A DNA stretch of 64,000 bases, taken from NCBI GenBank assembly GCA_043228905.1, contig JBHGNT010000002.1:26660001-26724000 (forward strand). The letters are read 5' to 3'. Made by a program: the position numbers and the translations under genes. The notes under the pieces are model-generated. The model had not been told where the DNA came from. It worked only from the letters and a program-made list of their open reading frames with translations, and made no database searches. Each line of letters opens with the position of its first letter. Within the stretch, counting starts at the first letter, position 1. Source of the stretch: Azolla caroliniana. Lineage: Eukaryota; Plantae; Polypodiophyta. Shown piece by piece: positions 8,119 through 37,668 of the stretch.

Positions 8119-8149
8119 TGACAAACACTCCAGTAAAGAAAGAATTTCC

Positions 8150-10319
8150 ACTTGCTCCAATAAAGAAAATTGCCATATTAGTGCTCCCTTCAACTTCATA
8201 GATATGCTTTCACTCCATGTCTACCATTGAATACAAAAGTGTTGTGCATGTTCCAATTATGACGCAATCCCCAATATCTCAGAAATAGGAAAATGATCTC
8301 AATCTCTGATTTTTGGTCAACCTGTGCAAATTGTGCAAACAACCATTGTCCAGGTGTCAAATAGCACCGTGATAAAACTTGCCAAATTTGAGAAATGTAA
8401 CTCCAAATTTGGCAAGGAATCGGACATTGTATAAATCGATGAGTACTATCTTCCATTTGAACAATGCAATAGAAGCAATTACCCATTGCTAGTCCACAAC
8501 GCTTTAGAGCTAATGCCAAAGGCAATCCTCCAATCAAAACTTTCCAAATGAAGATCTTTCCTACAGGTGGCAATTTAGAATGCCAACTACGTTGTAGGAT
8601 CTGCCACCAGCCATGATCAGATTTGTATATTTTCCATTCTTCTTCAGCCGTAGATGATAACCATCCAAGGGACTCAATAGAGCAATGATACAAAAGAATA
8701 GTAGTCACTTGTAACAACGACGTTTGACCCCGTAAACACCAATCAATCGTCGGTTGTTCTCCAAGACTTGTTTGTAATGGCAACTTCTGAAGTCTGTTGG
8801 ATATTATCTTTGCAAACACTTTGTATAACCCTCCCATCAATGAATAGGCCTCCATTGATAAAATGACTCCGGAGATGGTACCTTTGGTATCAATTTCATT
8901 AAGTCCACCTTCCAGCTCTCAGGCATGAAACCAGAATCCCAACATTGTTGAAACATTTGTGTGAATGGACTCTCAAGCATGCCCACATACTTCTTAAAAA
9001 CTTCATTTGTAACACCATCCCAGCTAGGGCTTTTACCATTTGGAAGGTGTAACAATACCTTTTCCACCTCAGCTTCTTCAAAATCAGCATCCAATTCTTG
9101 ACAAATATTTGTATTCACGGCACTCCCAATTACATTATAAAACTCTTGTCGTGCTTTCAAGACATCCTTATTAATAATCAACTCTGGCCCAATCAAATTC
9201 CTAAAATAAGTAATACATCACTCAATAACCTTGACTAGGTCTACAACAATGTCATCCCCTATCTTAATTTGTACCACATTTGAACGAGCATATGGTGGTC
9301 TTAATCCTTGAAAAAGCATATGAGATTGTGATTCGTTATCTATAAATCCCGCCTTTAATTGACATAGTCTTGTCTGTTGATACTTTGACAAGACAAATTC
9401 TTCACAATGTCTTGTACTTGAACTTGAACATCCAAAATCTCTTCATCATGTGGATTATTCATTAATAGTACATTGCACCGCATAAGAATATATGAAAACT
9501 TATCAATCAATTTCTTACGTCTTTTAGCATAAGTCATACCATACATACGATGAATATCATTGATGTTTTGTAGTGTTGTATCCTATGCAAGCCATCCTTT
9601 TGAAATAACTTGTTCTGAAAACATGCCAAAAATTTGTTGCATATAGGCATCAAATAAAGAAGAATTAAACCTCAAAGGAACTCGTTGAAGCAATGTTTTG
9701 TACATATCTGCCCCATGTTTATTAAACTCAAAACATATGGGAAAATGATCCAATGTCGACTGAAATGTAAACCCAACTTCATCTTGATGCAACCATTTCC
9801 ATACATCCAACTTCAAAACCTTTGATGCCAATTTGTCCCAAAGTGCTTGCTCAGGAGAATCCATCAATGAGAATCGTGAAGTAGATTGTGAAGCATCAAC
9901 ACACATATTAAAATCACCCATTAACAAACCAACACGGCCCACTAATAACTGTGGATACATTGAAGACCATAACTCAATGCATTGATTAGCATTATTGGGT
10001 GCATAGGTTCCTACCAACCATATCAAATCTTCAAAGTACTTGACTTCCATCACCAAAAAACGTCCATATTGATCATTGTAGACTATATGTGGACAAAACA
10101 AATCAGAATAATCATGACAACCCCTGAGTAATGATGTGATAACTGTCATGCATAATATGCAGAATATCCACGCAAATGTAACACAGATCCTGCTAAATCA
10201 TGACACTTATGTTCAACTACACATAAAACATCCCATTCTTTAACCAATATAGTTTTCCATAATATATATTTCTTATGAGGAGAAGATGCCCCTCGCACAT
10301 TCCATGATACCACTTTCAT
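8150..10319 (-). pseudogene. LINE ORF2 (APE endonuclease, truncated RT, zf-RVT)
   Basis: ORF pieces 9583-10149, 8837-9196 and 8196-8855, with stops and frameshifts. Confidence 0.85.
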
Positions 10320-15000: not shown

Positions 15001-15283
15001 AAGACCTTAATGTTTCGTAACATGATATCCTATGCTTTAACTCCTTTACCAAAATTTACCAAAATTTGCTCCATGAGAGAATCAAAGTGCGGTTGAAGCA
15101 AAAGAGAAGAGTTAAAGTGTAGTGGAGGCTTTCCAAGTAAAGATTTATACATGTGAATTGCATGATTACAAACCTCCAAAAATATAGAAAAGTGATCTGA
15201 AGTTCCTACATCTTGTAGAACTCTCATATGAAATGATGTTGGTAAAAAAGAATCAACGTGCATCACATACATTCTATCTAACC
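12060..15283 (-). mobile_element. L1-type LINE (copy 2, same family as copy 1): ORF2 from the end of the endonuclease to the 3' end
   Basis: RLDRMYV, SDHF, KSPSWDG, QYGFIAGR, EKAYD, QGCPLSP, zf-RVT. 12085-12750 closely parallels 8120-8760. Cut at 15283 by the copia A LTR. Confidence 0.88.
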
Positions 15284-16068
15284 TGATGGGAACTGGTCGT
15301 TCCTAATGCGCAACGCTTGGCCACAACCGAGCTTAGAATGATTCACAAAAAAAAATGGAAATAAAACATGACAAGAAGAAGGGAAGAGTGCGCGAGATGT
15401 TTACGTGGAAAACCCCAAACTAGGGGAAAAACCACGGTAGCCCACAGGCTGCAAACTATCACTAGGTTAGTATGTACAGCAGTGAGTTCACGGAGGCAAC
15501 GACCTCGTACTCACGATCTTCGCCACAGGCGGCGGTTACAATAGAGGCAACGACCTCTTTCTCTCACTCTCTCTCTGTACACAACGAGAATGACAACAAC
15601 CTCAGCCAAAAGTTTGCCCTAAGTCATATTTATACTAATATGACTTTTCAGCTATTTACAAATATAGCCTCGATGGACTCTCAGAAAACATATTTACGAA
15701 TATGTCTCTTCATCCGGTTCATATCGGGTCTGCACCATCCGGCTCTCTGTAGCCGGGTCCTCCTCGTCCTCCTCGTCCGGTTCATACCGGGTCTGCACCA
15801 TCCGGCTCTCCGTAGCCGGGTACTCCTCGTCCGGTTCATACCGGGTCTGTATCATCCGGCTCTCCGTAGCCGGGTACTCCTCGTCTGGTTCATACCGGGT
15901 CTGTATCATCCGGCTCTCCGTAGCCAGGTACTCCTCGTCCGGTTCATACCGGGTCTGTATCATCCGGCTCTCCGTAGCCGGGTACTCCTAATACGGGTTC
16001 GGCCGAGGCCGATAGTTCATCGGCACTGTTCTTCTCCCTTCCCATCCGGAGGGACCTGTCTCCCAACA
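15284..16068 (-). repeat. 3' LTR of copia A with an internal 54-bp tandem repeat (about 5 copies, 15712-15990)
   Basis: Minus strand TGTTGGGAGACAGG...GTTCCCATCA. Homologous to the solo LTRs at 34097 and 35976. Confidence 0.92.
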
Positions 16069-16078
16069 AACTCCCCCT

Positions 16079-19000
16079 TCACTCCGGCATGGGGTGTCTT
16101 ACCAGTCCGATCCTCTTCCGGCACGCACTCAGCTTGTCGGGTGTCAACACTTTGGTCAGCATATCTGACCCGTTCTCGGCCGTGTGGATCTTCGTCAGTG
16201 CGAACTCCTGGTCATCTACTCTTTCCCGGATCCAGTGATACCTCCGCTGGATATGCTTCGTCTGGGAATGGTAGGCTGCATTCTTAGCAAGGTGGATGGC
16301 ACTTTGACTGTCGCAATAGAGTCGGTATTCATCTTGTCGGATACCGAGCTCTCCGATGAAGTCCTTCATCCATAAGATTTCCTTGCCGGCTTCCACAGCT
16401 GCCATGTACTCCGCCTCCGTGGTTGACAATGCAACCGTCTTCTGCAGCCTCGATTGCCACGAAACAGCTCCCCCTGCATATGTCATCACATACCCGGATG
16501 TAGACCGGCTGGTATCCACATAAGCCGACATGTCTGAATCGGTGAAACTGTCCAGTTGAGGTTTTCCGGAGCCGAATCGGAGACACATATTTGAAGTGCC
16601 CTTCAAATACCGGAGTATCCATTTGACCGCGTTCCAGTGCTCCTTGCCGGGATTGCTCATAAACCAGCTCACCACTCCGACTACGTATCCAATGTCCGGT
16701 CGGGTACAAACCATTGCGTACATCAAGCTCCCGACGGTAGAGGCATATGGGATCTTCATCATATCCGCCTTCTCTGCTTTCGTCTTCGGGCTTTGCTTAC
16801 CGGATAGCTTGCAGTTTGCCGGAAGTGTCGATCCGACCGGTTTTGCATCTGACATGTTGAACCGGTGAAGCACCTTTGTCACGTACTTCTCCTATGACAG
16901 CCATAATTGCTTCGCTTTCCGGTTACGGATGATGTGCATCCCCAGCATCTGTCTTGCCGAACCCAAGTCTTTCATTGAGAAGGTCCGGTTGAGAGCCTTC
17001 TTCAGCATCCGTATTTTTACTTGGTCTCGTCCGACGATCAACATGTCATCCACGTAGAGGAGGAGTATCAGGAAGTCCCCTCCTTCGAACTTCTTCACAA
17101 ACACGCAGTGATCGGCCTGCGTCTTGTGGTACCCTTGATCGGTCATGAAGGAGTCGAACTTCTGGTACCATTGCCGGGGAGCCTGCTTCAGTCCGTACAG
17201 GCTCTTCTTCAACCGGCATACCAGGTGCTCCTTCCCTTTCTCCACAAATCCTTCCGGTTGCTGCATGTAGATCTCCTCTTCGAGGTCGCCGTGAAGGAAT
17301 GCCGTCTTCACGTCCAGCTGCTCTACCTCAAGGTCCATGCTTGCTGCTATACTCAGCACCGTCCGGATGGAGGTCATCTTTACTACCGGGGCGAATATCT
17401 CATCGAAGTCCACGCCCTTCTTCTGCTGGAACCCCTTCACCACGATCCTGGCTTTGTATCTCGGGGGGTTGCCGGCATCTCCCAGTTTCAACTTGTACAC
17501 CCACTTGTTTCGGAGTGCCCGCTTTCCTTTCGGCAGCTCCACCAATTCGTACGTATGGTTCTCATGCAGGGAATCCATCTCATCCTGCATGGCACTTAAC
17601 CATTTTCGGCTTTGGGTGTCTTCCTTCGCTTCTTCGAAGCTTTCCGGCTCCCCCACATCGGTCAGCAAAACATGCTCTGCATCCGGAAATCTCCGGGGCG
17701 CCCTTCTCTCTCTGAGAGGATATCTACGTCTTCGGGCTTCAGTAACCGGCTCCTCCATTTGCTCTTCATCTGAATCCGATTCGGGGTCTTGACCGGTTCC
17801 GGTCTCCGCTTCCTCTACTTCTTCTTCTGCCGGTTCGGTATCCTCACCGTAACCGGCTGGTTCCTCGAGTGCTAACCGGTCTCTTGCCGGTTGGGTCTGC
17901 TCATCGTAGAGTCTATCCTTACCGGTCGACTCGGAGTTCATTATCTTCTTCTCCGACTCCCAGTTGGCGAGCGTCTTGTCCTCCATGAAGATAATATCTC
18001 GACTCCGGAATACCTTCTTGTCGACCGGGTCCCACACTCGGTAGCCGAACTCATCGTCACCGTAACCGAGGAATATGCATGGCCGGGTCTTTGGATCTAA
18101 CTTTCCTCTCCGGTCCTTAGCTACATGCACGTACGCGAGACACCCGAACACCCTCAGATGCCGGTAGGACACTTCCTTACCGGTCCATACTCTCTGTGGC
18201 GTGTCTCCGTCCAAGGGTACTGAGGCTGATCTGTTTATCACATATGTCGCCGTCGACAATGCCTCAGCCCAAAACTTCTTGGGTAGTTTTGCATGCGCTA
18301 GCATACTCCGGACCCTCTCCATTATGGTCTAGTTCATCCTGTCGGCCAGTCCGTTTAGTTCCGGCGTCTTCGGCACGGTAAATTCGAGCCAGATTCCCTT
18401 CGAGCGGCAGTACTCCTCAAACTGCCCCCGGTACTCTCCTCCGTTATCTGCTCGAACCGCCTTCAGCTTCCGGCCGGTTTCTCTTTCCACTCTCGCGTGG
18501 AGCTCTTTGAAGACGGATAACACCTGATCCTTTGTCTTCAACGGTGTGGCCCACAGCTTCCGGCTGTGGTCATCTATGAACGTCACGAAGTACTGTGCTC
18601 CGGCATGTGACTTCGTGTCTACTTGACACACATCCGTATGCACCAACTCCAGTGGTGCATTACGTCTCATCGGTGGCCTTGGTCGGAAGGAGGTCCGGTT
18701 CTGCTTACCGGCCAGACAATCAGTGCACTTCTTTAAGTGCACGTTCTTCACTGGAATGAGGTTGTTGTTTGCAAGCCTCTTCATCCCCTTCTCACTCATG
18801 TGGCACAGCCTCTTGTGCCACAGCTCACCGGCAGTGTCGGATGCCATGTTCACTTCTTCCGGGCATAACCGGGCATTCATCAGGTACAACGTGTTTACCT
18901 TCCGAGCCCGAGCCACAATCAGGCTCCCGTTGCTGAACTTCATGACACCGTTCCGGATGCTACCCGTGTAGCCCTCATCATCTAGCCGACCGGCTGATAT

Positions 19001-20043
19001 TAGGTTCAGTCGAACCTCCGGAACATGTCGGACATCCCTCAGCAGCAACTTGCATCTGGTTGGTGTCGACAACCACACGTCTCCTATGCCGACAATTTGG
19101 CATGTACCTTCATTCCCCATCCGGACACAGCCGTGATCACCGGCTGAGTAGGATGAGAAGCATTTCCAGTCCGGGGTAAGGTGGAACAACGCTCCGGAGT
19201 CTACCACCCATGTCATCTCGTCGTCGGCAAGGTTTATCTCACACTCCTCGGTGATGAGCATCAACTCTTCTTCACTTGCCGCGATTGTCGTCGTTCCCTT
19301 CCGGTCTTTACCGTTCCGGTCCGGGGTTTGCTTCGAATCGGTACCGTCGATTTCCTTGTCTTTACGGAAATGCCGATAGTTCTTTTGGAAGTGACCCGGC
19401 TTGCCGCAATAGAAGCAAGTGGGCCTCTCCCTTGACTTTGACCGTGTCCCCGACTTCTCCCGGTTCTGGGGACTACGGTTTCTATGTCTTCCGCGTTCCG
19501 ATTCGGTAAGGAGCGCCTTGGAGTCGGAGCTCGTATCTTTATCCTTCTGACGCGCCTTCTCATCTAGCAAGCTCGACTTTACTCTTGCTAGGGATAACCG
19601 TTTTCCTTCCGGTCCGGCGTTGCCTAAAGTGACAACCAACGTCTCCCAGCTATCCGGGAGGGAACCGAGCAGGAGTAGCGCTAGTACCTCATCGGCAAGA
19701 GGTACTTCCAATGAAGTTGCCTGGTGTATCAGCCCCTGGAAGGCATTCATATGCTCCGCCATGCTGGAGCCATCTTGGTACCAGAGTCTTACTAGCTTCC
19801 GGAATACCGAAACCTGATTAACAACATTTTTGTTCTGAAACATTATGCCGATCTTCTCCCAGAGCTCATGAGCCTTGCCCTCTTCATTGAAGTTGTTGTA
19901 CAGGCTCATGTCGATGAAGCACCGTATGTACGCCGTTGTCTTCATGTGCATCACCTCCCATATCGCGGCGTCGATTTTGTCCGGTCTCTTGTCCCCGAAC
20001 TGAACCGGCAGCCAGAGGTCTTTAACCACGAGCATGTCCCTCA
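16079..20043 (-). pseudogene. Copia gag-pol polyprotein in one frame, with two TAG stops and the N-terminus missing
   Basis: CFYCGKPGH knuckle, VDSGA protease, WHKRLCH..CTDC and rve integrase, GKLD motif, YVDD RT, DSD/STTEAEY RNase H. ORFs 18329-20062, 16892-18322 and 16079-16882 are co-frame. Confidence 0.93.
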
Positions 20044-20045
20044 AG

Positions 20046-23000
20046 GATTCATTTTGGGCCAAAAATACGTGTGTCTCACCAAATAAGAAGGACGTGTGTA
20101 GACAACGAATAAGTCAGGGTAAGTACCAGATTCACCCTAGACACTTCTTGGAGATGACAGAGGTATTCCATTTTTTTATATCAATTCACATTCCATAACT
20201 TTGTGTTTTGACCAAGTGTATATTAATGTTTGCTATATATATTGGTTGATGTAGGCTGAATTGTACATGAACTTTAAAGACCAACATCCAAGCTTGACTG
20301 TTGGATTCCGCAAGTTCCAAGGTTTGAAACCATTTTATGTTAGAAAATTAAATGAGAGGAATACATGTTGTTGTGTGTACCATGTGAAGATGGACATGTT
20401 AAGGCTACCAGTGAATGCAATGCGTACTGATTCTAAGGGTATACACGGGGAATTATGTGTTTGCACTTGTGAGATTTGTAGACCAAATGGGGAGGATAAT
20501 AGGTGTAATGCACGAAACATGACTTATGCATCCGTTTTTGAGCTATGGAGGTCTTGTGTTTGTGAAAAAGAACCATCATGTGAGTGGCATCGTCGTACAT
20601 GTCTATTAAGAACATGTAAGGTTTGTCCGCTACCATTATTTTGTAGGCAGGAGCTTGATTTGGGAAATAGTCATATCGTGAAATGGAAATATTTGGAGTA
20701 TGTGACTGAAAATATTGGCAAGGGAGTTGTAACTAAGCGTATCAAGGAAGTATATAAGGAGACATGTGCTGCTACCCTTGTCTCAGAATTTAAGAAACAA
20801 CTTGGGGAGTTCATTCCACATAACTTCCGGAGTTATTGGCAAAATTCACAGTTCAAGGAATGTATTAATAACTTACCAACGGGTGTCATCGTATCCGTTA
20901 TTGATTTTGTAGAAAACTATACATTTAAAGTTCAAAATGAGGTTCAATCAATGCATTGGTACAATGATCAATGTACAATACTTGAACATATTTGCTATTG
21001 GAGGCAAGATGGTGAGTTACATAAGAAATCAATATTTTACATTTCAGATGATAAAAAGCATGATACACTATTTGTTCAACATTGTTTTAAGCTTCACCAT
21101 GCAGATTTATTTTCTCTAGGGTTAACCTTTAACCGTCATTGGGTTTGGTCAGATGGTGCAGCCTCGTAGTTTAAGGCGGCACGATCGTTCTACTTTATCG
21201 CCAGGTAATTTTTAATCCATATGTTTAGTACTTATCATGCAATGTGTAAGGAAGTAATTCTTGTGTTAGTGGATGCATACTAATTATGTTTGTAACTATT
21301 AACAAACAATACTATTCACATGGATGCATACTAATTATGTTTGTAACTATTCGAATCTTGCACTTGTGAATGGATGCATGCATACTAATTTTGTTTGTAT
21401 TATGTTGTGTGTTGTATCTGTACTAAATCAATACTTACTGAAGGATGTAAAGTACTCGTATTGTACTCTATAGTATTGTCCGTCCTTAAGAGAATTGTAC
21501 TAAGTAACTTTTAATCCATGTGAAGTGTTCTCCATAGACACATTGTACTATGTTGTGTTTACAGAAGGATGTAAAGTACTCATCTTGTACTCATAGTATT
21601 GTCCGTCCTTAAGAGAATTGTACTAATTATCTTTTTATCCATGTGAAGTGTTCTCCATAGACACATTGTACTATGTTGTGTGTTGTATCTGTACTATGTT
21701 GTGTTTACAGAAGGATGTAAAGTACTCATCTTGTACTCATAGTATTGTCCGTCCTTAAGAGAATTGTACTAATTATCTTTTTATCCATGTGAAGGGTTCT
21801 CCATAGACACATTGTACTATGTTGTGTGTTGTATCTGTACTATGTTGTGTTTATAGGAGGATGTAAAGTACTCATCTTGTACTCATAGTATTGTCCGTCC
21901 TTAAGAGAATTGTACTAAGTATCGATTAATCCATGTGAAGGGTTCTCCATAGACACATTGTACTATGTTGTGTGTTGGTTCTGTACTATGTTGTGTTTAC
22001 AAAAGGATGTAAAGTACTCATCTTGTACTTATAGTATTGTCCGTCCTTAAGAGAATTGTACTAATTATGTTTTAATCCATGTGAAGGGTTCTCCATAGAC
22101 ACATTGTACTATGTTGTGTGTTGTATCTGTACTATGTTGTGTTTACAAGAGGATGTAAAGTACTCATCTTGTACTCATAGTATTGTCCGTCCTTCAGAGA
22201 ATTGTACTAAATCAGTATTTACTCATGTTGTACTCATAGTATTGTACTCATCTTGTACTCATCTTTTAAACACACTATGTGGTACTGATTATCTAATAAT
22301 CAATGTTCAACGTTCTCCATGAACACATTGTATTGTACTATGTGTTGTATCTATACTAAATCAGTGTTTATTGGGGGATGTAAAGTACATGTCTTGTAGT
22401 ACTAATGATCTTCTAAGGAGGGTTGTGTTCTTCGTGGACACATTATACTGTACTATCCGATATTGAACATTTTGTACTATTTATATGTTAATACATGTAG
22501 AGTGCTTTCCATGAACTCATTGTACTATACTTTGTGTTATGTCCATACTAAGTTAGTATTAAATGGATGCCAGGTACTGTTGGTCGACAACATAGTACTA
22601 TTTATCTTTTAATAAGTGTAGAGTGTTCTCAATGGATACGTTGTGCTATGCTTTGTTTTGTATTTGTACTAAATCAGTATTAATGGAAGTGTAGTACTCT
22701 CAATTGACAACATAGTACTAATTTTGTTGGAAACCTGAGATACCAAAGCAGGTATTTCTCCTTATTCAATATTCGTATGCAATGGAATTACTTCGGGTCT
22801 GGACATGGAAAAGGAGAGCATGATGGCGCGGGGGCTGTGATCAAACATGCCCTTACAAGTGAGCAGTTGGATAATAATGGTGCTAAGTTACAAAATGCAC
22901 ATGATGTTGTGCAGTGGCTAACATGGAAGATGTCAAATGATGGTAAGAACAGATTGTTTGTTGAAGTTCGCGCTGATGAGGTCGATAGAACTAAATCATA

Positions 23001-23637
23001 TGGTTGTAAAACCGTGAAAGGCACACGCAGCACCCATTGTGTGTTAGGGTTTAGCCGCAAGGACACAACACAATTGTTACTCCGTAGTTTATCATGCTTT
23101 TGTTCCATGTGTCTAGATGAAGCTTGGGATAAATGCATCAACCTATCAATCGTGGAGCCTTGGAAGCTGCAGAAGCTTGAGCCTGAACGACAAGATGATA
23201 TTGAAGAGGATGTGCATTCAAACGATATTGTATACTACAACCAAAATCAAGACTTGGCAGTTTTATTGGAAGTTGGAGATCATTTTGCAGTGCTCAAATA
23301 TCCTCAGAATGAAGATTTAGAAGACTACTACATTGTGGTGTGCAAGCAAGGAAAGACATTATTGAAAGAAGTGGTGAGGGATGGTTGGGGCAACAATTTC
23401 AACATTGGTGAGTGTGTCGTGTATGGAAACTATTATGCAAAGTTGCCGCGGTGCAAGAACACATATGCATTACTAAAAGAAGCACCCATCGCAATAATCT
23501 ACGTTGATGCCATTCTTGCGATCAAATTCAATATGACTCAAGCAAAGCACAAGGTTAAGGGATACAACACTGTCTACAAGGTCCCCCAAGAGGTTCATGA
23601 GCACATATTAGGGGAGGTCTCTCTATTTAATGCTTGA
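20046..23637 (+). pseudogene. Sola2-like DDD transposase, three visible exons (<20046-20162, 20255-21204, 22752-23637), one premature TAG
   Basis: GT-AG introns 20163-20254 and 21205-22751 both keep the frame. Motifs FW..T..SPNKKD, F..LKP, CCCVYH, DFVENY, WSDGAAS(*)FK, WNYFGSGHGKGEHDGAG, SCFC..C. TAG at 21167-21169 replaces the expected Q. Superfamily assignment is from recalled motifs. Confidence 0.8.
21440..22262. repeat. 146-bp tandem array (about 5.5 copies) in transposase intron 2
   Basis: Unit starts (GAAGGATGTAAAGTACTC and variants) at 21440, 21564, 21710, 21856, 22002 and 22148. Degenerate GTACT-rich flanks run from about 21270 to 22720. Confidence 0.93.
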
Positions 23638-25329
23638 AAGTCACCCTATCAATACATTGTACCAGAAAACTGAAAAACATCCACTTGGAGTTCACTATTA
23701 ATTTTGATGATTGACAAATGAATTGATATATTTCGTCTTTCTTCCAAAGTGTTTATGCCTCTCAACCACTTGTACTTATCTTTCATAATATATTAGTTGT
23801 TGTCAACAGGACTTGGATTTCTTCATTGCCGATATTGCTCATGTTTCCTGATGTTATTTGAGCATAGGAGTTTTGCAGAGCCATGTTAAAATGAGTAAAA
23901 ATATTGTATATCTTCTTGATAAAGTCTAGATTCATAAGAGTTGGTGTGTCCTCTGTTGGCACATAAATCTGCTCTTCTTTTGCTACCAAGAGAAGATTGT
24001 TAGTTGAATTCATTAAAGACTTTAATATTGTAAGATTTTCTACTGTAAGTTCATTCTTCAAAGGGGGCGATGAATTCTGTGAAGACAACAAAGAAAATTA
24101 TTCTCTCAGAATCCTTTTTTGTTTCATGATATGTCCTGTGAAGCCATCTGAGTTTTAACTTCTTGTATATAAGTCCTGAATATCCAGGCTATGGATTTTA
24201 AAGTATAGACCTTCCTTTCCTTAACGAAATAATCCAACTCCTGAACAAAATAATCCAACTCCTGAAACAATAATTTGTGATAGCTCAAAAAGGTAAGTGT
24301 TTCCTTACTACTGTTAGTGGATGGTTCATCCTTTGGGATGATATCATCAAAATATGGCCCACATTGCTTCAACAATTTGCACACATTCTGGTTACCCTCC
24401 AAATGGGATTGATGAAACAGTCTATACTTCAGTATAGCTTCAATAACACCCGATATTTTCTGTTTCTCATCATCAACACCTGAAAACCTAAATTTTCCTA
24501 GCAAGCTAAGAAGACTTTCAAACATTTTATCTACAATAGACTGAAAGACTTTGCGAGGATTAGGAGATGATCTCAAAAAAGAAACAAAACGCTGTAAAAT
24601 AAGAATACTTAGATCAAAAAGTATATTCCCATTGTTTTTGATATATGTTGACGAGCAAAATACAGAAGCAATCCTTAAACATGAACTTGATTTCTCACTG
24701 GTATAACTATTTCAGATTCATGAACTGGATTTTTGACATTGGCAATTGAAACAGTATTTTGGTATCCAAATAGTTCAATTTCAGACATCACTAACAACTA
24801 AAGTTCAAGTACAATCGAAAGACAATCAGGCACTAGAGGGTAACTTGGCTGATCTTGTAATGCGCTTGTTGTTGGTGCCAGATTTTTCTGATTTTACATT
24901 CTTCTTTATCTTAAAGCCTTTAGGTATGAGCTGACTAAGTGGCACTTCATCATCAGAGGCATCAGAGACAGGCGTGGATGGGCGGGCACCTTGTACTGGT
25001 GGCAAGCTTGAGAGATCAACTATGTTTTCTACAACTGCAATGCTTGTACACAAATCCACAAAGGTGCTGTCGATAGACAAATTATCACTCATCTCCTGAA
25101 TGCTTGTACTCCTAGCGATCTTTATTGCCCTATCATCATCACCGATGCCTATACACTCGTTCTTATTAGACTCCTGTATGTGGACTGTGGCAGTAGTCAT
25201 GGTCAACTCCTCTTGTACGGTGGATGTCACCTCATTCATAAGACAACGTGTACCTGCTTGGGTGGTCGTTATTGCCTGGTCCTCTTGGGTGATGCTAGTA
25301 TGCTCGCTCTGAGTACAATCAGGCCCCCC

Positions 25330-25690
25330 TTCATTAGTAACGTTGTTCGCTCTACACTCCTCATGGGATTCTGTACAATCAGGCTTATCTTCAGGGAAAG
25401 CGATGTTCTTTCCACGATCCTCATGGGCTTCACAAGACACTACTAGCACATTCTCAGTACAATCAAGCTCCTCTTCAGTACTTGCCATATTCTTTCCACA
25501 CTCTTCATGGGCTTCAATCTTCTCTTCAGTACTTGCCATATTCTTTCCACACTCTACATGGGCTTCAATCTTCTCTTCAGTACTTGCCATATTCTTTCCA
25601 CACTCCTCATAGGCTTCTTTAGACATAATGTTGTTTGTACATGCCAGCTGCTCTTCACATATGAATGCTGCGTTTTTCTCACAATCCTCA
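25330..25690 (-). repeat. Coding 54-bp repeat (AHEECGKNMASTEEKIE-type), three good and several degenerate copies
   Basis: Visible in ORF 24826-25794 and as TCTTCAGTACTTGCCATATTCTTTCCACACTC repeats. Confidence 0.85.
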
Positions 25691-26689
25691 TGTGTGGAAG
25701 ATGTGCTTCCAGAGTCTGCCTCCGTGCAAAGGTTAATTTGATTCTGACTCTGACCAGAATCTGACTCTACACTTGTGCTCCATGAAGTTCCCAATTCATT
25801 TGATTGCAGTTGGGAATTAGACTGCTCTTGTAAACCTAATTAATGGGATTCCAAAGAATATTGGTATCAACTCACATACTCAAAAGTTTGCAAACAATGA
25901 ACATAGGGTTTAGGGCCACATTTTTACCTAATGTTACATCGTCATACTGTACAGCCGTAGATACCCCATTGCAAGTGGTGGGCTCGGTCATCTTCTCCAC
26001 AACATCTAGGTGCTCAACAGTGTTGTTATGATCTATAATAACAACAAAAATAGGGTTGTTATGAGCTAAATCATTGTTTTCAAAGTCTGGCTTTTGACGT
26101 GTACCTGGGAGTGTGATAAATTCGTCTTCATGATCAGGTTTTGGACTCGTATCTCCGTCACCAAATATCATTTCATCATCAGCTAGTAACACAAGTACAT
26201 GGTATTAGACAATGGATTAGGTTGACAATGCTCCGGACAGATGAGAACTTATATGACTCACCATTGCATTCAACTTTGCCTTTCTTGCCGTTTCCATACA
26301 ACATTCTTGCAACATTTCTCTTCTTACTGGGCTCTATTTGTAAAGAAACTGCATTTGTCTTCTTAGTGGGCTCTATTTCTTGATGTTGACCGGAGCTTGG
26401 GGAATTTGTTTGTAGAAGCATATGTTCCACTGCTCCAATGGCCCTTCTCATACATTCATCCTCATCATAAAAATCATAGGTTATTGGTAATGATGGTCCC
26501 TGAACCTTGGAATGTGCAGCAGATATTGAGGGTTTAGGCAAAGGGGCTGGTTGTTCCATTACCTTCCCTAGCGTGGAGTTGCTTGACACTACAACATTCA
26601 TTGCAAGAAACAAAAAAACCTTGAATGTTAGTACCATCATCTAAAATATATAATGTAGGTCACAAGAGCTGCTTCCCATTTTACACAAT

Positions 26690-27960
26690 GTACCAATCAT
26701 GAACAATGTACTACTCACATAGTTCCTAAATTACTGAACTAGTACTATTAAGGAACACTGTACTGCTCACTTAGTTCCCAATTTACACAAGTAGTACTAA
26801 TCATGCACAATATACACAAGTAGTACTAATCATGCACAATATACTACTCACTTAGTTACCAAATTACACAAGGAGTGCTAATCCCGAACAATGTACCACT
26901 GACTTAGTCAAATTAAAAAGTAGTACTAATCTTGAACAATGTACTACTCACTTGTTTCCTAAATTACTGAACTAGTACTAATAAGGAACAATGTACTGCT
27001 CACTTAGTTCCCAATATACACGATTAGTACTAATCATGCACAATATACACAAGTAGTACTAATCATGCACAATATACACAAGTAGTACTAATCATGCACA
27101 ATATACTACTCACTTAGTTACCAAATTACACAAGTACTAATCCCGAAAAATGTACCACTGACTTAGTCAAATTAATAAGTAGTACTAATCTTGAACAATG
27201 TACTACTCACTTATTTCCTAAATCACTGAACTAGTACTAATCCCGAACAATGTACTGCTCACTTAGTTCCCAATTTACACAAGTAGTACTAATCATGCAC
27301 AATATACTACTCACTTAGTTACCAAATTACACAAGGAGTACTAATCCCGAACAATGTACTGCTCACTTAGTTCCCAATTTACACAAGTAGTACTAATCAT
27401 GCACAATATACTACTCACTTAGTTAGCAAATTACACAAGGAGTACTAATCCCGAACAATGTACTGCTCACTTAGTTCCCAATTTACACAAGTAGTACTAA
27501 TCATGCACAATATACTACTCACTTAGTTACCAAATTACACAAGGAGTACTAATCCCGAACAATGTAATGCTCACTTAGTTCCCAATTTACACAAGTAGTA
27601 CTAATCATGCACAATATACTATTCACTTAGTTAGCAAATTACACAAGGAGTACTAATCCCGAACAATGTACCACTGACTTAGTCAAATTACACAATTAGT
27701 ACTAATCCTACAAAATGTACTACTCACTTATTTTCTAGATTACTGATCTAGTACTAGTAAGGTACAAAACTAGTACTAATAAGGAACAAAGTACTACTCA
27801 GTTCCCAAATTACAAAACTAGTATTAATCATGAGCAATGTACTAGTAACTTAGTTCACAAAGTACAGAACTAGTACTAATCATGAACCATGTAGTACTTA
27901 CTAAGTACTAATCCAACAAATGTAGATTGGTATTTTGCACACAAGTAATACTAAACATGA
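26690..27960. repeat. 52-bp tandem array organised as a 104-bp dimer, inside the large intron of the RING gene
   Basis: TCCCGAACAATGTA at 27241, 27345, 27449, 27553 and 27657 (104-bp period), alternating with TCATGCACAATATA subunits. Rich in (T/G)AGTACTAAT. Confidence 0.93.
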
Positions 27961-29839
27961 TATGTGTTCTACACACCTAGTTACATAACTTGTACTAATT
28001 ACACCAACAATATTAATCTTGAACAATATTAGTACTAAACGTGATATGTGTTTGACACACCTCATTTCCAAATTACAATAATTGTACTATTATTCAGCAA
28101 TTTACTATACACCTTGTTCCCAAATTACATTACTAGTACTAATTCCCAAGTTACACAAACAATACTAACAGTCAACAGTGTACTATAAGTATAGTGTTTA
28201 CTAAACTAATACTAGGCAAGTTGCAATATAGATTGGACGATGTTGTACCTGGTTCCCTTTTAGTACTACTAATTCTGGAAAATATCCCTTCAACTACACA
28301 TACCAATTATATATTAAGAGTACAGCCAATACTAACCCACATAATTAGGGTTCCACATAATAGTTGTTAAAGATTACACTAAATTTGAAGTATGAATTGT
28401 GGCATACACTAGTTCTAGTCCAAATGTTAATTGACATCATATAATACAAACAATAGAATAGTAGAGCCACATACCGTACGGGTGTACTTTTAAACCCCAA
28501 GCATAGTACCACTCAGCCGCAATTGTAGTTTTACAGTCCATACATGTATTCTCTTTCTCAAAATGATACTTAGCACATAGCACATGATATGTGTGCAAGC
28601 ATGGTGTAATCATAACATCCATAGCCTCCAGCTTGAATCCAAGGCCACAAAATATACACCTGGAAGATTGCAAACACAAGTTATAATATATTAGCTGCTC
28701 ACTTATTTATACCAGAGAAGTAGAAATAAATAACTTTTAAAGCCAATACCATGATATAGCTATACTAATAATGGTACTTTCTATACCACTTGGGTGCTCA
28801 ATTACAGATGGACACAAAGTATCAAAACCCTTTTGTTTTAAATCCTGCATCAAGCATGCAAGGTTCTCAGAATGCAACTTTAAGGCTGACAACTTATTAT
28901 CTATTTCTTCATGTGCATTCTTGCAAGTATCAAGGTCTCTCATCTATGAACCTAATTGAGTGCCCATATTGTTCAGCTCTTTCTTCAACTCCTCTTTCAA
29001 CACCTCACTTTCTGAATTTTGGATTGTCGATGCAATCCATTCATATGTAGTTTTTATTGAAGAAAATTTCTTTTCTGCCTGTATCTCAGCTGATTTAACT
29101 GCTTCCAAATCAGCAAGTAGTGTTTGTATTCTTGAGCTCATAGAAGCTATGCAACCGGCCATCATCTGTTCATGCTTTTCAGTCATTGTGGCCCATACCT
29201 TTGCCTCTAGAACTTGGTGGACAGGTGTTATAGCTAGAATATCCACATGAGAGGTTCCAGATGACTTCAAGCCAGTGTTGGTACTGGAGGACCCTTTGTA
29301 ATGTTCTGACCGGTGCCGATTAAAATCTTCTCAATTTACGTCAATGCCACCTTGAACTTCACATGCAAAAGCACGTGCAAAAACAGTACCCACCTCATTG
29401 TTAGTGATTTGATTTGTATCATAAACATGTTCGTATCTCGTCTTCAATAAATTCATGTATTCCCTCTTCAAACCACTTATGTGGAATCCTCGCCTTGTGT
29501 CGGGATGTGCTGACCCCCAGGTTTTTAACAACCACTCTCTCAACTCTGGATAAACGTCAGGTCGTGCTCGAAGGAAATAATTCCATCCAAGAGGTGTGTC
29601 TCGACTGATGGAGTGGTACATCTTCTTTCTCTGTGTTGATGAATTCATCACCCTTTCTCTTGTGGGTGTCTTCTTGCTTTCTTTCATGGGTGTCCTTCTT
29701 CCTTCCTTCACTGGTGTCTTCACTTTCTCTTTCATCAATGTCTTCTTTATGGGTGTCCTTCTCGTCATTGTCCTAGTCAACACAATTCTCAGGGAATGAA
29801 TATGCATGTACTAGAAGAAAACTCAAGCAATTACCATCA

Positions 29840-30385
29840 ACACATAGCAAATCATCACATTGCATGTACAAACCATGTCAAACACACAATAACCCTAAAT
29901 AGTCGGAAAAAAACTCATCCATGTCAAACACAGACAATAAAAACAGACGGATAGGAAAGTCAAAGAAAACGAAAACATTGTAAATCATCATAGCCAACTC
30001 CATCACATCGCATGTACAAGCCATGTCAAACACACAAAAACCCAAAATAGTCGGAAAAACACTCATCCATGTCAAACTGACACAAAATAAAACAGATGGA
30101 CAGGAAACAAGAACAAAACGAAAACATAGCAACTCATCGTAGCCAACTCCATTTACGTTGCATGTACAAACATGTCTAACACACAACCACCTCGATCAAA
30201 ATATTGTCATACATTTTTAAAAGAAACACAGAGAAAACAAAAACATACCAGTTGGGCATGCAACACATAGACTATGAATAATCAAACCCTAAAAATGGCC
30301 ATACACATGCAAATAAAAAACAGACAGACAGGAAACATTCAGAAAAAGAAAACATACCAGTTGGGTATGCAACACAGAGAATACC
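29840..30385. repeat. About 149-bp tandem repeat (about 2.5 copies) followed by an about 110-bp duplication, upstream of the RING gene ORF
   Basis: GCATGTACAA..CATGTC.AACACACAA near 29862, 30010 and 30160. AAACATACCAGTTGGG.ATGCAACACA near 30241 and 30350. Confidence 0.8.
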
Positions 30386-30857
30386 TGGAGGTCGTACAAC
30401 TTGCAGAGGTACCACACCGTGTTGATTTCAACACCTTGGGAGCACACCAAGCCTTCAAAATCACCTATATGCAAGAGTTTGTTGACGAGACTGCTGCAGA
30501 GGAGACAAACGAGCATACACAAGGAAGGAAAATCAACAACACATACAACGAGCAGGGGAAACAAAAATCCGCACGTATATAGAGTTCAGAGATCGAACCT
30601 GGCACAGAGGGGAACACAAGAACAGCTACGCGGGGAAACAGAGAATCGAAGGTGGAGTGAGAGAGAGAAACAGAAAGAAAGAAAGAAACAGAGCTTCGAA
30701 GGTGGAGTGAGAGAGAGAAAGAGAGAGATAGACCTGTAATAGATATGTCGTCTTTCTTTAACTTTCTGCCACTGTCTGTCTGACAACTTCGAGACAGAAG
30801 AGAGAGAGAGAGCGAGAGAGAGATACCAATTGACACGTTCGACTACCCATACCAGAG

Positions 30858-32382
30858 AGATAGATAGATAGATAGATAGATTATATTATCGTCTTCGGAG
30901 ATCAAATATGACCTATGAGACCAAAAATATTACATTTCACGTGATACGTGTGAAAGTGAGTAGTGACTCTCGATGTTCAAGAACTTTACCAATGAATGTT
31001 GCAATCGAGAGTGCACATTGGGGTTGTGAGAGGAATTCATGCAAAGATTGGGCTCGATCGAAGAGATGTGGAAAGCATGGTCGAATATGATCAAAGGCAG
31101 AGCATTGTATCAAAGTGTGATACTCAGACTCGCGAACTTGTTTAGGGCAAAGTGTGCATAACCGACCACTCTCATCACTTGTACCCCAACGCCCTGTTTC
31201 ACATCGCAATGCATGTGAGCTAAGTCGCATGGAAGCAATGGTTCGAATGGCAGATAACGGTATGGGCTCTAACATGTATGGATGTGTACGATTTCCCCGT
31301 TCCGCAAAGAATATGGTTTTGTAGTTAGGTGCAACATGTGTAGTATAATGTGTGAAGCGTGAGCCTCCACATTTGTCCCATGTCATGATACATTGGCGTT
31401 GCAAAAATGCCTCATTTACAGAGGAATCTAATGATGCATCATGAAGCAAGTGTCTCGCATCCCATCTACCAAACCATTTTTCTATATCTTGCATCCAACC
31501 GGAACACAAAATTTTGCTTTTATGCGTCTTTTGGATCTTTTTGCTTGCTTCCCACGCAATTCTAGGAAGTCGATGTGAGGGACTTTTTTGAACCTTAAGC
31601 ATGTATTCAACAACCCTTTCCATGGCCATGATCTCAATGGGAAGCGATCCCGTCTCAAGGAGGAGGAGGGTGTAGGGCGTTTGTTTCTTAACTTGTAGAA
31701 ACTTGGTAAGAAAATGCTTTTGGACATTTTCAAACTCTTTCCACATAGACTTAGGGATGCTACCGCCCCATACTTCCACCCCATAGAGAAGAACTGTTGT
31801 CACCAAAGTGTCAAAAAGATATTTCTTGAGGACCCAACACTTAATATCTCCAAGATTGCATGTGTTCTCAAATGCATAGTATGCTCGTTTGCCCGCCTCT
31901 AAGCGGCGTGTAGCACATTCATTCCATCTATGATTTGAAGGAACTTCAAGGCCAAGATATTTGAAGCTTTCCACACATTCAAGTGGCTCATTGTTGTACA
32001 TAATGCATGGTTTATCTCTTTTTTGGCTCTTCACAAGCATAATCTTTGTTTTAGAGCTATTGACACTTAATTTAGTATGCATGCAAAATTTTTCCAATGC
32101 CTTCATAAGCTTTTGTGCATCTCCTAAAGTATTTGCAAAAAGCACTACGTCATCTGCATATAGCAAAAGCATAATCACAACATTCCCAATGGCAACTTCT
32201 TCAACACATTCTTCCTTTGCAAACTTGGTAACCATTTCTTCCAATTCATCAATGCATAGACCAAATAGTGTTGGTGAGAGTGGGCATCCTTGCTTAACAC
32301 CAATAGTGCTTTTGAAAAAATCTGAAACTGAGACTGACCAACTGTCACAATGGATACCTTCTCCAAGTGTGCTTTCGTACAA
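30858..32382 (-). mobile_element. 5'-truncated RTEX-like non-LTR retrotransposon with a (CTAT)n tail
   Basis: Open 481-aa frame: GVKQGCPLSP, YADD, YLG, LLYGVEVWG, RLSSHALRCETGRW, CTLC...EYH...C. (GATA)n on the + strand at 30858-30881. The 5' end lies between about 32325 and 32382. Confidence 0.82.
30937..32382 (-). CDS. Partial RT plus C-terminal CCHC domain (uninterrupted frame, 5'-truncated)
   Basis: ORF track, 481 aa, lacking the endonuclease and the N-terminal RT subdomains. Confidence 0.75.
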   Translation of the reverse strand: MYESTLGEGIHCDSWSVSVSDFFKSTIGVKQGCPLSPTLFGLCIDELEEMVTKFAKEECVEEVAIGNVVIMLLLYADDVVLFANTLGDAQKLMKALEKFCMHTKLSVNSSKTKIMLVKSQKRDKPCIMYNNEPLECVESFKYLGLEVPSNHRWNECATRRLEAGKRAYYAFENTCNLGDIKCWVLKKYLFDTLVTTVLLYGVEVWGGSIPKSMWKEFENVQKHFLTKFLQVKKQTPYTLLLLETGSLPIEIMAMERVVEYMLKVQKSPSHRLPRIAWEASKKIQKTHKSKILCSGWMQDIEKWFGRWDARHLLHDASLDSSVNEAFLQRQCIMTWDKCGGSRFTHYTTHVAPNYKTIFFAERGNRTHPYMLEPIPLSAIRTIASMRLSSHALRCETGRWGTSDESGRLCTLCPKQVRESEYHTLIQCSAFDHIRPCFPHLFDRAQSLHEFLSQPQCALSIATFIGKVLEHRESLLTFTRIT

Positions 32383-34096
32383 CTCTACCTAGGAGACTGG
32401 GGCAACAATTAATGTATTAAATATGGCCTAGGGACATTTCGAGTGTGACGTATAATATCTTTGTGCATTCGAGTGTGACGTAATGAATTTGTTTTTTGTT
32501 TTTTGAAATTTATTTACAATTTTTAATGTTTATTTTCTTCTTCGATTTAGTACTAAATTTTTGGCCAAAAGTTGGTACACCGTAGCATGCTTCGACCCAT
32601 AGAAGGGTTGATCTATCATAGTAATTCTCTTCTCTATTCTTAATAGCAGATTTATTTACCCAAATTTAGGGAAGTTACAATATACAAAAGGGAGAGAGAA
32701 GGACAATACGTTAAGTACATACTCAGCCATGGAGGGACCATCGACATCAACGCCCCGAGAGTGATGCAGTGCATCAGCTCTCAATCCAGTCTTTGTCGAA
32801 GGGATTTTAGACATTAACCTTGCACCAAAGGATGAAGTGATTGTTGTGCAAGAGGTGGTTCGTCTTCAGGCCGTCTCAATAGTGATACATGTCTTGGGAA
32901 GTCGGCCGAGCAAAGGGGATCTTCGACATTTGTTATAGTCTTCAATCCAATCAGATTTGAATAAAATTATTGACATTCAAACATTAGAACGTGGTTGCTA
33001 TTAATTGGAATTCGAGAATGGTGAATCGGTTTTCCGTCTCTTGTCATTGGGCTCAGTGGATCTTAAGGGTGCATTGGCGGTGTTTTATCCTTGGCGTCAC
33101 GGATTTAATACAATTGCATTACAAGAGGATTCAGTTGTGATGTTCACTTGTACGACGGTTTTCCCAAGCTTGGAGAAAGAATGGAGGAAGATATTGACTA
33201 AATTAGGTGCATCTATTGGTAGGGTCTTGGCATTTCAATCACGGAATACGAAGGAGGTTTTGGAAGGAGGAGCCCCGTCAGTGAAATTGTCATGTAGGAA
33301 GGGGGACAAATTGCCGTGACAATGGATTCAATTGCCGAAACTAGATGGAAATGATTTTCAACAATTTTAGAAAGTTGTATATTATGGTTTACCAAATCAA
33401 TGTTATAGGTGTAAGGAATTAGGTCATATTGCCAAAGCCTGTCCATTGGAACAAGATACTACCTCGTCCGGTGAAGGCCTTGTTCAAAAATCTTTGCAAT
33501 GGCAGACCGTGAATAGAAGGCAAGTGTTTTGGGGAAAGAAAAAAATGGATTTGCCTGATAGAATTTATGATAATCCTTTGCAATAGTTTTTAGTTTTGAA
33601 TAGTGTTGCGTAGGTTGTGGAAGCAAATTACGAGCCGTTACATATTGTTGCATTGGATGGTGTTGATAGCCAACAAGCTAGTATGGTTCAGGAGGTTGGT
33701 CTTTGTGAGGATGCAGTGCCTATGAATAATCCTTCAAAGGTTCAAAAGTTGGTGCAACATTTAGAGAATCAATCAAACAAGCAAGTATGTTCTTTTAAGC
33801 CAGAAATTCAGCAAATTTCTATATCTAAGGACATTGTGCCTTTTTCTTATGCTGAGATTGTGAGAAAGAATGTAGAGGATCACTCTAAGAAGATGGTGTT
33901 GCATGCTGAAAATGTTCCCATTCCTTATCAATTTTCAGCGTCCAATAGTGTAGTTGAGGCTGTAGGGAATAGCAAAAATAGAGTATACAAGGATACTAGA
34001 AATTCTAATATGGAAAAAAGATTTACTAGAGCAGTTTCTTTAGCTCAAAAGGAACAGAGTGATATCTTGAAGGATAAAAGGTTGTTACCTCCCTCC

Positions 34097-34438
34097 TGTT
34101 GGTAGACAGGTCCCTCCGGATGGGAAGTGAGAAGACCAGTGCCGACGAACAAACGGTATGAACCAGATGAGGAGTACCCGACTGCGGAGAGTCGGATGGT
34201 GTAGGCCCGGTATGAACCGGATGAGGAGTACCCGACTGCGGAGAGCCGGATGGGGAGTACCCGACTGCAGAGAGCCGGATGGAGCCCATCAAGGCTACAT
34301 TTGTAAATAGCCGAAAAGTCATATTAGTATAAATATGACTTAGGGCAAACTTTTAGTTGTAGTTGTTGTCGTTTTATGTTGTTATTATTCTTTCTTGTTG
34401 GTGCAAGAAGAAATTAGAGCGCGTAACTGTACAGAGAC

Positions 34439-34471
<33 letters not shown>

Positions 34472-34749
34472 CGAGGTCATTGCCTCTGTTGTAACCGCCG
34501 CCTGTGGCGAAGATCTGAGAGCACGAGGTCGTTGCCTCAGTGATCTCACTGTTGTATATTTCTACATAGTGATAGTTTGCAGCTTGTGGGCTGCCGTGGT
34601 TTTTCCCCTATTTTGGGGTTTTCCACGTATACCTCCTGTGTACCATTTCTCCTCTTTTGTGTCGCGTTTCATTACCTGTTTTTCTGTGTATAAAAAGGAA
34701 TCAAGGTTGAGGCCGAGCGTCGGACATAAGGAACGTCGAGTTCCCAACA
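34097..34749 (+). mobile_element. Solo LTR of the copia A family, TSD CCTCC
   Basis: TGTTGGTAGACAGG...TTCCCAACA, with CCTCC at 34092-34096 and 34750-34754. Confidence 0.93.
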
Positions 34750-35975: not shown

Positions 35976-36830
35976 TGTTGGGAAACAGGTCCCTCCGGAT
36001 GGGAAGGGAGAAGATCAGTGCCGATGAACAAACTCGGCCGAGGCCGAAACCGTATGAGGTGGACTCGGCCACGGAGAGCCAGATGATGCAGACCCGGTGA
36101 AGACCGGATGAGGAGTACCCGGCTACGGAGAGCCGGATGGTACAGACCCGGTATGAACCGGATGAGGAGTACCCGGCCACGAAGAGCCGGATGATGCAGA
36201 CCCGGTGAAGACCGGATGAGGAGTACCCGGCCACGGAGAGCCGGATGATGCAGACCCGGTGAAGACCGGATGAGGAGTACCCGGCTACGGAGAGTCGGAT
36301 GATGCAGACCCGGTGAAGACCGGATCAGGAGTATCCAGCTACGGAGAACCGGATGAAGAGACATATTCGTAAATATGTTTTCTGATAGTCCATCGAGGCT
36401 ATATTTGTAAATAGCCGAAAAGTCATATTAGTATAAATATGACTTAGGGCAAACTTTTAGCAACGGTTGTTACTGTTGTTGTAGTTGTTGTCATTTTTCT
36501 TGTTGGTGCAAGAAGAAGAGAGTACGTAACGTTGTACAAAGAGAGAGAGAGAAAGAGGTCGCTGCCTCTGTTGTAACCGCCGCCTGTGGCGAAGATTGTG
36601 AGTCCGAGGTCGTTGCCTCCGTGAACTCACTGTTTTGTACATTCTTACATAGTGACAGTTTGCAGCCTGTGGGCTGCCGTGGTTTTTTCCCCTAGTTTGG
36701 GGTTTTCCACGTAAACCTCCTGTGTATCTTTCTCTCCTTTGTGTCGTGCATTTGTTCCCTGTTTTCTGCGTATGAAAAGAATCTCGGTTGTGGCCGAGCG
36801 TTGGACATAAGGAGCGTTGAGTTCCCGTCA
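35976..36830 (+). mobile_element. Solo LTR of the copia A family, TSD GAGGG, about 6 copies of the 54-bp repeat
   Basis: TGTTGGGAAACAGG...TTCCCGTCA, with GAGGG at 35971-35975 and 36831-36835. Repeat starts at 36056, 36110, 36164, 36218, 36272 and 36326. Confidence 0.93.
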
Positions 36831-37668
36831 GAGGGATGACAGTACTCTCTCAACAGATCTAGATAAAATGCGAGAGTTGGTATCGCGGTATTATGAACAA
36901 TTGTTGTTTGCTGATGAGGTAAGTCAAAATGTATTGGCAATGAGGGGTATAGTTTTCAGTACAACAAAGCCCTATGTTACAGATCAAATGGTTCAAACAC
37001 TTTTATGCCCATTTTCATCTTCTGAGGTTTTACAAGCACTAAAATCTTTGGGTTCCGAGGTTTGCCCAGGAGAGGATGGACTAATAAGAGATGTTTTCGT
37101 ACAGTATTGGAACATTATAACTGATGATTTAACTAGTGGTTTTCAGATAATTTTTTATTCGAGAGCTATGCCAGAGGAATGGAAAGAGGGGTTGATTTGT
37201 CTTATCCCTAAAGTAGATGGAGCTTCAGAGGACATTAGGGCATGGCGGCCGATCACATTACTAAATACAATTTACAAAATTTATGCTAAGGTATTGGCAT
37301 TGCGTTCGCAACCTTTATTGCTTGATATTATTCATACTTCTCAGACAGGTTTCATGCAAGATAGAAGTGATAATATTTTCTGGTTTTGGGAGGTGTCCGC
37401 ATCATCTATGGAAAAGAAAGAGAACTTAGTCATTTTATTGTTAGATTTTGAAAAGGCCTAGGATAGAGTGAATGGGAACTTTTTAGAAGAGGCGATGAGA
37501 AGATTAGGGTTTCCAGAAGCTTGGATTATTGCAGTGTCAGCTTTGTATAGATTAGCTTATAGTTCTGTCTTAGTAGTAGGAGGTTGAGGACGAAGATTTC
37601 AAATGTCATGATCTGTTCACCAAGGGTGTCCATTAGCCCCTTTCTTATTTCTTATTGTTACGGAGGTA

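Follow-up and report, generated by a model that had tools for sequence, protein, structure and literature searches.

The window considered in this work is a stretch of 64,000 nucleotides of Azolla caroliniana DNA (contig JBHGNT010000002.1, positions 26,660,001 to 26,724,000 of the forward strand), in which positions 20044-32598 are occupied by the remnant of a DNA transposon, set amid long interspersed nuclear elements (LINEs) and long terminal repeat (LTR) elements. This remnant is a dead, 5'-deleted copy of a multi-copy Sola-like transposon of the DDD (three catalytic Asp) type, and it carries two convergent genes, viz. a transposase on the plus strand and, on the minus strand, a gene (referred to below as gene 2) whose product has a conserved N-domain, a predicted coiled coil and a RING-H2 finger. 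This two-gene architecture is real and it is conserved. The features of the element, in window coordinates, are as follows (TIR, terminal inverted repeat; TRF, Tandem Repeats Finder; ORF, open reading frame).

20044..20162, plus strand: remnant of the 5' coding exon of the transposase; 95% match to the related locus L020 from 20045, GT donor at 20163.
20255..21204, plus strand: transposase exon with a Cys/His cluster and the first two catalytic Asp regions; 43-48% identity to the homologs P0001-P0010, stop at 21167-21169.
21205..22751, plus strand: transposase intron with a GTACT-rich array of 146-bp units; 1547 bp, GT..AG, at a site uninterrupted in ten homologs.
22752..23637, plus strand: last transposase exon with the third Asp region and the stop at 23637; 34-40% identity to ten homologs, plus-sense polyA RNA.
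23783..26588, minus strand: 3' exons of gene 2, acidic and of low complexity with a 51-bp coding repeat, then C-terminal exons; from ORFs with approximate exon limits, minus-sense RNA at 23722-24793.
26589..28474, minus strand: predicted gene 2 intron with an array of 52-bp units and 21 TAGTACTA palindromes; 1886 bp, GT..AG, in phase.
28475..28659, minus strand: RING-H2 exon of gene 2; PF13639 with E 6.4e-5, under the gathering cut-off, RNA depth up to 11.
28660..28749, minus strand: 90-bp gene 2 intron from the coiled-coil exon to the RING exon; GT..AG, 17 RNA reads.
28750..29768, minus strand: main exon of gene 2 with basic TP-x-K repeats, N-domain and predicted coiled coil; a single frame with two in-frame stops, minus-sense RNA.
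29853..30186, no strand: short repeat upstream of gene 2, 148 bp x 2.2 (TRF), with 0 GTACT.
About 30890..32330, minus strand: inserted 5'-truncated LINE fragment, outside the ancestral element; RVT_1 with E 6.9e-19.
32573..32598, minus strand: right TIR of 26 bp, starting GGGTC; its reverse complement is 25/26 identical to the left end of L020, and its flank is ATAG.

A first-pass annotation of this DNA had proposed a spliced transposase that ends at 23637, and the homologs bear this out, as ten of them read through the site of the intron 21205-22751. Both long transposase frames match these full-length proteins of 567-636 residues (34-48% identity), and the dN/dS ratio of the transposase exon against the sister subfamily (L025) is 0.16. 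Three conserved Asp-bearing blocks are present in the window transposase and the 10 homologs, and we take these blocks to be the probable Sola2 DDD triad; the GGG with which the TIR starts presumably fits the 5'-GRG of Sola2. The probable assignment as Sola2-like is based on the motifs of the DDD blocks and the TIR. No Pfam model matches either the window transposase exons or the ten homologs, and there is no Mutator-like element (MULE) match among them. The N-terminal part of the transposase, which is deleted in the window and present in L020, has a stretch that we read as helix-turn-helix (HTH)-like. The convergent multi-exon minus-strand gene with a coiled coil and RING-H2 finger, proposed in the same annotation, likewise stands, its last open frame ending near 23783.

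The state and limits of the copy are clear from the sequence and from read depth. Stops are present in both genes, at 21167-21169 in the transposase and at 29331-29333 and 28944-28946 in gene 2. Further, about 1.5 kb of the left end is gone, including the TIR, the start and the putative HTH region; L020, which is 95% identical to the window transposase region from 20045, runs 1.5 kb further left to a 26-bp TIR, and the left ends of L023 and L024 start like this TIR. In the window, the transposase remnant joins a copia gag directly at 20043/20044, and as this gag (without its start and 5' LTR) and the transposase are both headless at the junction, one deletion took both left ends. On the right side, the terminus at 32598 is genuine, as had been supposed: it has the TIR, and past it the DNA depth in run X1 drops from 4,888 to 140. 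The summed contig depth in X1, which is no copy number (single X1 contigs have a depth of 15-22), is 2,077-7,885 across the element bins with the LINE and a masked microsatellite excluded, 958 and 0 in two bins at the microsatellite mask, and 140-347 beyond 32647. Due to the high summed depth inside and the drop past 32598, the element is a multi-copy one that ends at the TIR. None of the relatives found has both ends; the flanks of single TIRs from one-ended copies are CTAT, ATAT and GTAA (left) and ATAG (right). In 20 loci, scanning for paired ends yielded a single weak target site duplication (TSD) candidate, which would exclude gene 2, and TIR/TSD scans of distant loci gave no convincing pair.

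Whether gene 2 is part of this element or a neighbouring host gene can be judged from its copy number and its recurrence. Its DNA depth is comparable with that of the transposase and falls off past the TIR. Organisms B and D (runs X9 and X16) show a depth of 2,135-9,102 for the transposase; for gene 2 the depth is 1,288-4,285 at 24794-26660, with lower values of 191-1,846 at 23722-24793. To look at relatives, metagenomes were scanned with a transposase alignment, by which 338 stretches were matched and 217 confirmed, and the best 80 of these fell into 38 clusters. Clusters were counted instead of loci because paired loci are mostly one site assembled twice, and the clusters represent relatives rather than independent events. 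The RING profile used on them consisted of the window RING and 19 of the 36 matches of a RING search, which were picked regardless of their neighbours. Downstream of the transposase, 7 of the 12 clusters that offer 4 kb or more of sequence there (L033, L029, L049, L061, L080, L017 and L010) have a RING-H2 of the same family on the minus strand, as does L014, for which 3.5 kb was available; upstream of the transposases, 135 kb of flank of the cluster representatives gave 0 RING matches at E<1e-3. The RING-bearing clusters fall in two transposase clades of 30-45% identity in a quick tree, built without an outgroup and of which 2 forks are cited here. A single-copy host neighbour is thus rejected by the multi-copy depth and by the recurrent, tail-to-tail linkage to distant transposases, and gene 2 belongs to the transposon. 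The conditions that the first-pass annotation had set for its own refutation thus turned out in its favour.

Other loci of the scan show variations at this position. L071 has 3' exons and an array in common with L017 and no RING match in its 6 kb, and L077 has an N-domain-like frame on the plus strand. In a third clade, L034 carries directly after the transposase, in the same orientation (3658-4917, plus strand), a 420-residue ORF with a coil-like middle and a RING-H2; when aligned by hhalign, the N-domain profile is in register with this ORF but insignificant (prob 0.7, E 0.08). L001 (2767-3972, minus strand) and L008 (5322-6104, minus strand) have a NIF/FCP1-like phosphatase of the HAD type right after the transposase and convergent with it (PF03031, E 8e-15 and 3.7e-6), in the first motif of which Asn replaces the second Asp; in these families it is either an alternative cargo or a C-terminal domain belonging to gene 2. 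In L010, the last minus-strand frames before the transposase end (4211-4595) have no Pfam match and a motif that is reminiscent of the active site of Ulp1-type proteases. The exons 2.5 kb past the transposase in L042 (5703-7005, plus strand) appear cullin-like, which suggests that this element is in or next to a host gene.

The gene 2 frame spans 29810-28750 on the minus strand. At its start (29660-29768, minus strand) four TP-x-K/R repeats are found within a lysine-rich stretch, which are reminiscent of minor-groove-binding or cyclin-dependent kinase sites. These are followed by the conserved N-domain of about 120 residues, located upstream of the coil, and the protein P0018 is colinear with window gene 2 over the coil and RING. 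Profile matches to the N-domain in L010, L015/16, L027/33, L029/31, L048/49 and L061 are circular, these being training rows, and the independent ones are in L017, L077, L079/80 and the window. Of 15 N-domain rows, 14 are net basic, the exception being the window fragment. When L015 is compared with L016, the dN/dS ratio of the N-domain is 0.25 and that of the coil 0.33, so that both are under purifying selection; the linker has a ratio of 0.65. The AlphaFold2 model of the L010 N-domain is a confident one, with a pLDDT (predicted local distance difference test) score of 87.8; neither Foldseek (PDB and viral models) nor a VIA wide search gave a match to it, which proves neither novelty nor distinctness from VANC, and a Pfam scan of the N-domain was also without a match. 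Its nearest named clusters in the ESM Atlas are ATHILA ORF1 (PF03078, score 0.89, 17% of members) and Transposase_32 (PF20167, score 0.88, 94%), which at scores below 0.9 are leads only, and a second query (P0049) gave no usable named match and did not repeat this lead. The RING, in the window and in relatives, has C3H2C3 spacing (C-x2-C-x15-C-x-H-x2-H-x2-C-x10-C-x2-C), followed by a conserved W-x3-G. A structure search of the second protein, as had been suggested, gave matches for this part only: with the L049 RING-region model, Foldseek ranks RING domains highest (prob about 1.0, although E is 0.02), and RING E3s are the only, weak, matches in a PDB sequence search. The RING finger is described here as a predicted ubiquitin ligase (E3).

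Expression was examined in about 12% of each of three polyA RNA runs of organism C (X21-X23). In all three runs the first mates of reads over the N-domain, coil and RING exons are always on the plus strand, i.e. the RNA is minus-strand; the transposase reads are oppositely oriented in two of the three, and both transcripts meet near 23720. As 17 reads are interrupted at 28660 and go on with letters resembling the end of the upstream exon, the 90-bp gene 2 intron is spliced. At listed sites within 28461-29426, nearly all RNA reads carry identical differences from the window, the variant being about 85-90% identical, and many of these alleles are absent from X1 DNA or found there only in contigs of depth 15-30. 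This indicates that the mRNA comes from a diverged low-copy variant and not from the high-copy subfamily, although the inference is weakened because X1 carries another organism label. Of the zinc ligands, only one is touched by the listed RING differences, at a third codon position. The expressed variant is either a master copy or a copy that the host has domesticated.

Both genes had been annotated as containing an intron of 1.5-1.9 kb with a GTACT-rich array, and this is confirmed. The arrays comprise 4.6 units of 146 bp at 21544-22210 in the transposase intron and 17.8 units of 52 bp at 26813-27730 in the gene 2 intron (TRF), and GTACT occurs 55 times in the first intron and 74 times in the second, where Markov shuffles give 8.0 and 14.3, respectively; the density in distant flanks is 1.2-1.6 per kb. 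In the case of the third array, supposed to lie upstream of gene 2, the repeat at 29853-30186 is real, but it is rejected as a motif array since it lacks GTACT. The 146-bp and 52-bp units have in common matches of just 16-17 bp with the same core. Further, the sister subfamily (87% in the exon, with differences mostly at third positions) has an intron at the same site with a 41-bp unit, which gives no blastn match to the 146-bp unit, whereas its top word is still GTACTAA. The retention of the word through replacement of the unit argues for selection for binding sites. Other families have amplified other words (CCATTAA in L004, GTAATTA in L007, AAGTACC in L003 and TAGCATA in L001), and an amplified word is present upstream in 21 of the 26 loci tested. 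This upstream word ranks first or second in the locus's own downstream DNA in 7 of 21 loci, 6 of which are among the 7 of the window's clade, so that motif sharing across the transposase is clear in this clade and weak elsewhere. In 7 of 8 distant RING-bearing clusters a tandem array has its end no more than 1.5 kb past the RING exon (a limit set after viewing the data), with a different unit in each; arrays cover just 2-12% of those loci. L042, which is without gene 2, has no amplified word, a statement limited to that locus; outside it, L044 (611-748) and L053 (16-65), of the same family without gene 2 downstream, carry a dense ATCGCATATGCGAT-like palindromic array upstream of the transposase.

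These results bear on an account in which gene 2 is a captured host gene that is passively carried and the arrays are neutral slippage in AT-rich introns. The pseudogene state of the window copy agrees with it, as do the CG depletion of the arrays and the origin of the mRNA from a low-copy variant, possibly one domesticated by the host. However, gene 2 is kept beside transposases that are just 30-45% alike, its dN/dS is 0.25-0.33 with invariant zinc ligands, and the motif is retained through complete replacement of the unit; we therefore disfavour this account and consider it very improbable.

We tentatively prefer, with confidence that falls somewhat short of even, a reading in which the gene 2 protein may bind the intron motif and use its RING finger to sustain the transcription and mobility of its own family. 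The motif of this family, WGTACT / TAGTACTA, would be recognised by the small basic N-domain; oligomerisation through the coiled coil would restrict good binding to dense arrays, and the RING-H2 would recruit a ubiquitin-conjugating enzyme (E2) and ubiquitinate nearby chromatin or silencing proteins. The intronic arrays would be removed by splicing, so that their turnover would damage neither protein. Gene 2 is favoured as the binder because its own intron holds the array that is densest and most constant, and because a small basic domain, an oligomerising coil and an enzyme-like module would suit a density-sensing chromatin regulator. Its putative anti-silencing role is suggested by analogy, and the protein-plus-array system envisaged in the first-pass annotation is in this sense partly supported.

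The motif is, however, subterminal too, due to which the transposase is an alternative binder. Copies of AGTACT are grouped at 30-77 bp from the left TIR, and TAGTACTA is found once about 45 bp inside the right one, as first annotated; a subterminal position is the usual place of transposase sites. On this basis the arrays could be amplified transposase-binding subterminal sites that gene 2 does not read; its target in trans, as a ligase with a RING or as an adaptor, would be some host protein, e.g. a silencing or DNA-repair factor. We consider this explanation somewhat unlikely. The HTH-like stretch read in the L020 N-terminus is consistent with it, as is the persistence of arrays in L001 and L008, where another cargo (the NIF phosphatase) occupies the same slot, and transposases can drive sequence-specific activation themselves, according to a recent report (bioRxiv 10.64898/2026.08.24.746577). 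It accounts less well for the internal motif copies, which are more than ten-fold in excess of the subterminal ones and kilobases from the ends, for the most constant array position being right after the RING exon (7/8), and for the one case (L042) in which gene 2 and an amplified word are both lacking.

Gene 2 could also be a transposition cofactor, which binds the motif and whose coil helps to pair the ends or to load or turn over the transposase, leaving silencing unaffected. The DNA-binding partner of Harbinger elements and TnpA of CACTA elements are precedents for such a role. The conservation of gene 2 in two, perhaps three, transposase clades and the motif near both ends are in keeping with it, and TnpA/TnpD complexes have been modelled (PMC13547354). 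But related transposases occur without gene 2 (L041 and L042), end pairing needs no arrays deep in introns, and a RING finger would be unexpected in a purely structural cofactor, so that we regard this role as doubtful.

In addition to the subterminal motif copies and the published transposase-driven activation, a number of other observations weigh against gene 2 being a motif-reading counter-silencing factor. Gene 2 was not found downstream of the transposase in L041 and L042 (4.9 kb in the latter), and L015, which like L016 has the N-domain and coil, gives no RING match in 5.3 kb downstream. Within the window's clade the RING is seen in the window's family only, the other contigs being short, and outside this clade the upstream word is among the top two downstream in only 1 of 14 loci. 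The arrays are CG-poor (observed/expected 0.22-0.34), which is not a sign of protection from methylation. The window exon matches an N-domain profile built without it weakly (E 0.014 among 10,743 ORFs), and its N-domain is not net basic (9 K+R vs 9 D+E). Further, RING-H2 ligases usually carry a Trp and a Pro at the E2 face, and these are not conserved in the RING alignment.

Of the surrounding features, the LINE fragment at about 30890-32330 is rejected as a component of the element, as its DNA depth (95,000-317,000) is 15- to 150-fold above that of the transposon (2,000-8,000); its family is very abundant, and RNA reads come from both of its strands. The size of the element without the LINE, obtained by summing, is about 12.6 kb. 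The copia element at 15283-20043 (minus strand) has a 3' LTR that looks intact, its 5' LTR and gag start being gone, and LTRs related to it are located at about 34097-34749 and 35976-36831. A scan with Rfam gave 0 matches.

In its widest form the preferred reading, which at that breadth we consider speculative and on balance unlikely, would mean that non-seed land plants harbour an old Sola-like lineage with independently evolved, sequence-specific counter-silencing, in which a new DNA-binding fold fused to a RING ligase co-evolves with intronic arrays. No earlier case of a DNA-targeted E3 encoded by a transposon would then be known, and from one family to another the second-gene slot would exchange its chromatin-enzyme payload (RING, NIF phosphatase and others). 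Sequence-specific anti-silencing by transposons is known mainly from Mutator (VANC) and CACTA (TnpA) elements of Arabidopsis. If the reading is correct, this strategy arose again from unrelated parts, in a further superfamily and in plant lineages of far greater age, with ubiquitination added as a route, and the different word of each family would provide natural protein/motif pairs for co-evolution tests and for targeted chromatin tools. Should the transposase be the binder, the element still defines a multi-copy RING family that is unannotated and whose members would otherwise be counted as host E3 genes.

A literature search, which covered neither Repbase nor most subscription journals, gave no report of this two-gene element. 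Its DDD transposase, short TIRs, AT-rich flanks and occurrence in non-seed plants are like those of Sola/Sola2 elements as described in PMC10741241, where Sola TIRs are reported as 11-1124 bp (26 bp in the window); in size it exceeds the 2-9 kb usual for Sola. The earlier statement that Sola elements are mainly transposase-only goes too far, as Fanzor1 is present as a second gene in the Sola2 elements of Dictyostelids (PMC3627910); unlike in these elements, the cargo here is an N-domain/coil/RING protein. ATHILA ORF1 and Transposase_32, the leads for the N-domain, are accessory proteins of LTR elements, and the Athila domain has also been modelled with long coiled coils (PMC13547354). The combination of an element-encoded protein with dense short motifs is similar to that of En/Spm (CACTA) TnpA and the AtMu1 transposase, for which self-activation is described; however, TnpA is reported to be transposase-derived (both from bioRxiv 10.64898/2026.08.24.746577), whereas gene 2 has no such link and has a RING. 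From VANDAL/VANC the element differs in its transposase superfamily, its short TIRs, its RING-H2 finger and an N-domain without a DUF1985 or PMD match in Pfam; with a transposase that is not of the Mutator type it falls outside that group, and VANC itself is described as dicot-specific and MAIN-derived (PMC5735166; PMC13547354). The resemblance to VANDAL/VANC lies instead in the arrangement. In both, an accessory gene stands beside the transposase, a family-specific short motif is multiplied by tandem repeats in introns (as in the VANC pattern of PMC5735166), the arrays turn over fast and a coiled coil is predicted, which in VANC21 is a predicted dimerisation region (PMC13547354); this VANC-like amplification is weak in other clades (1/14) and clear in that of the window (6/7).

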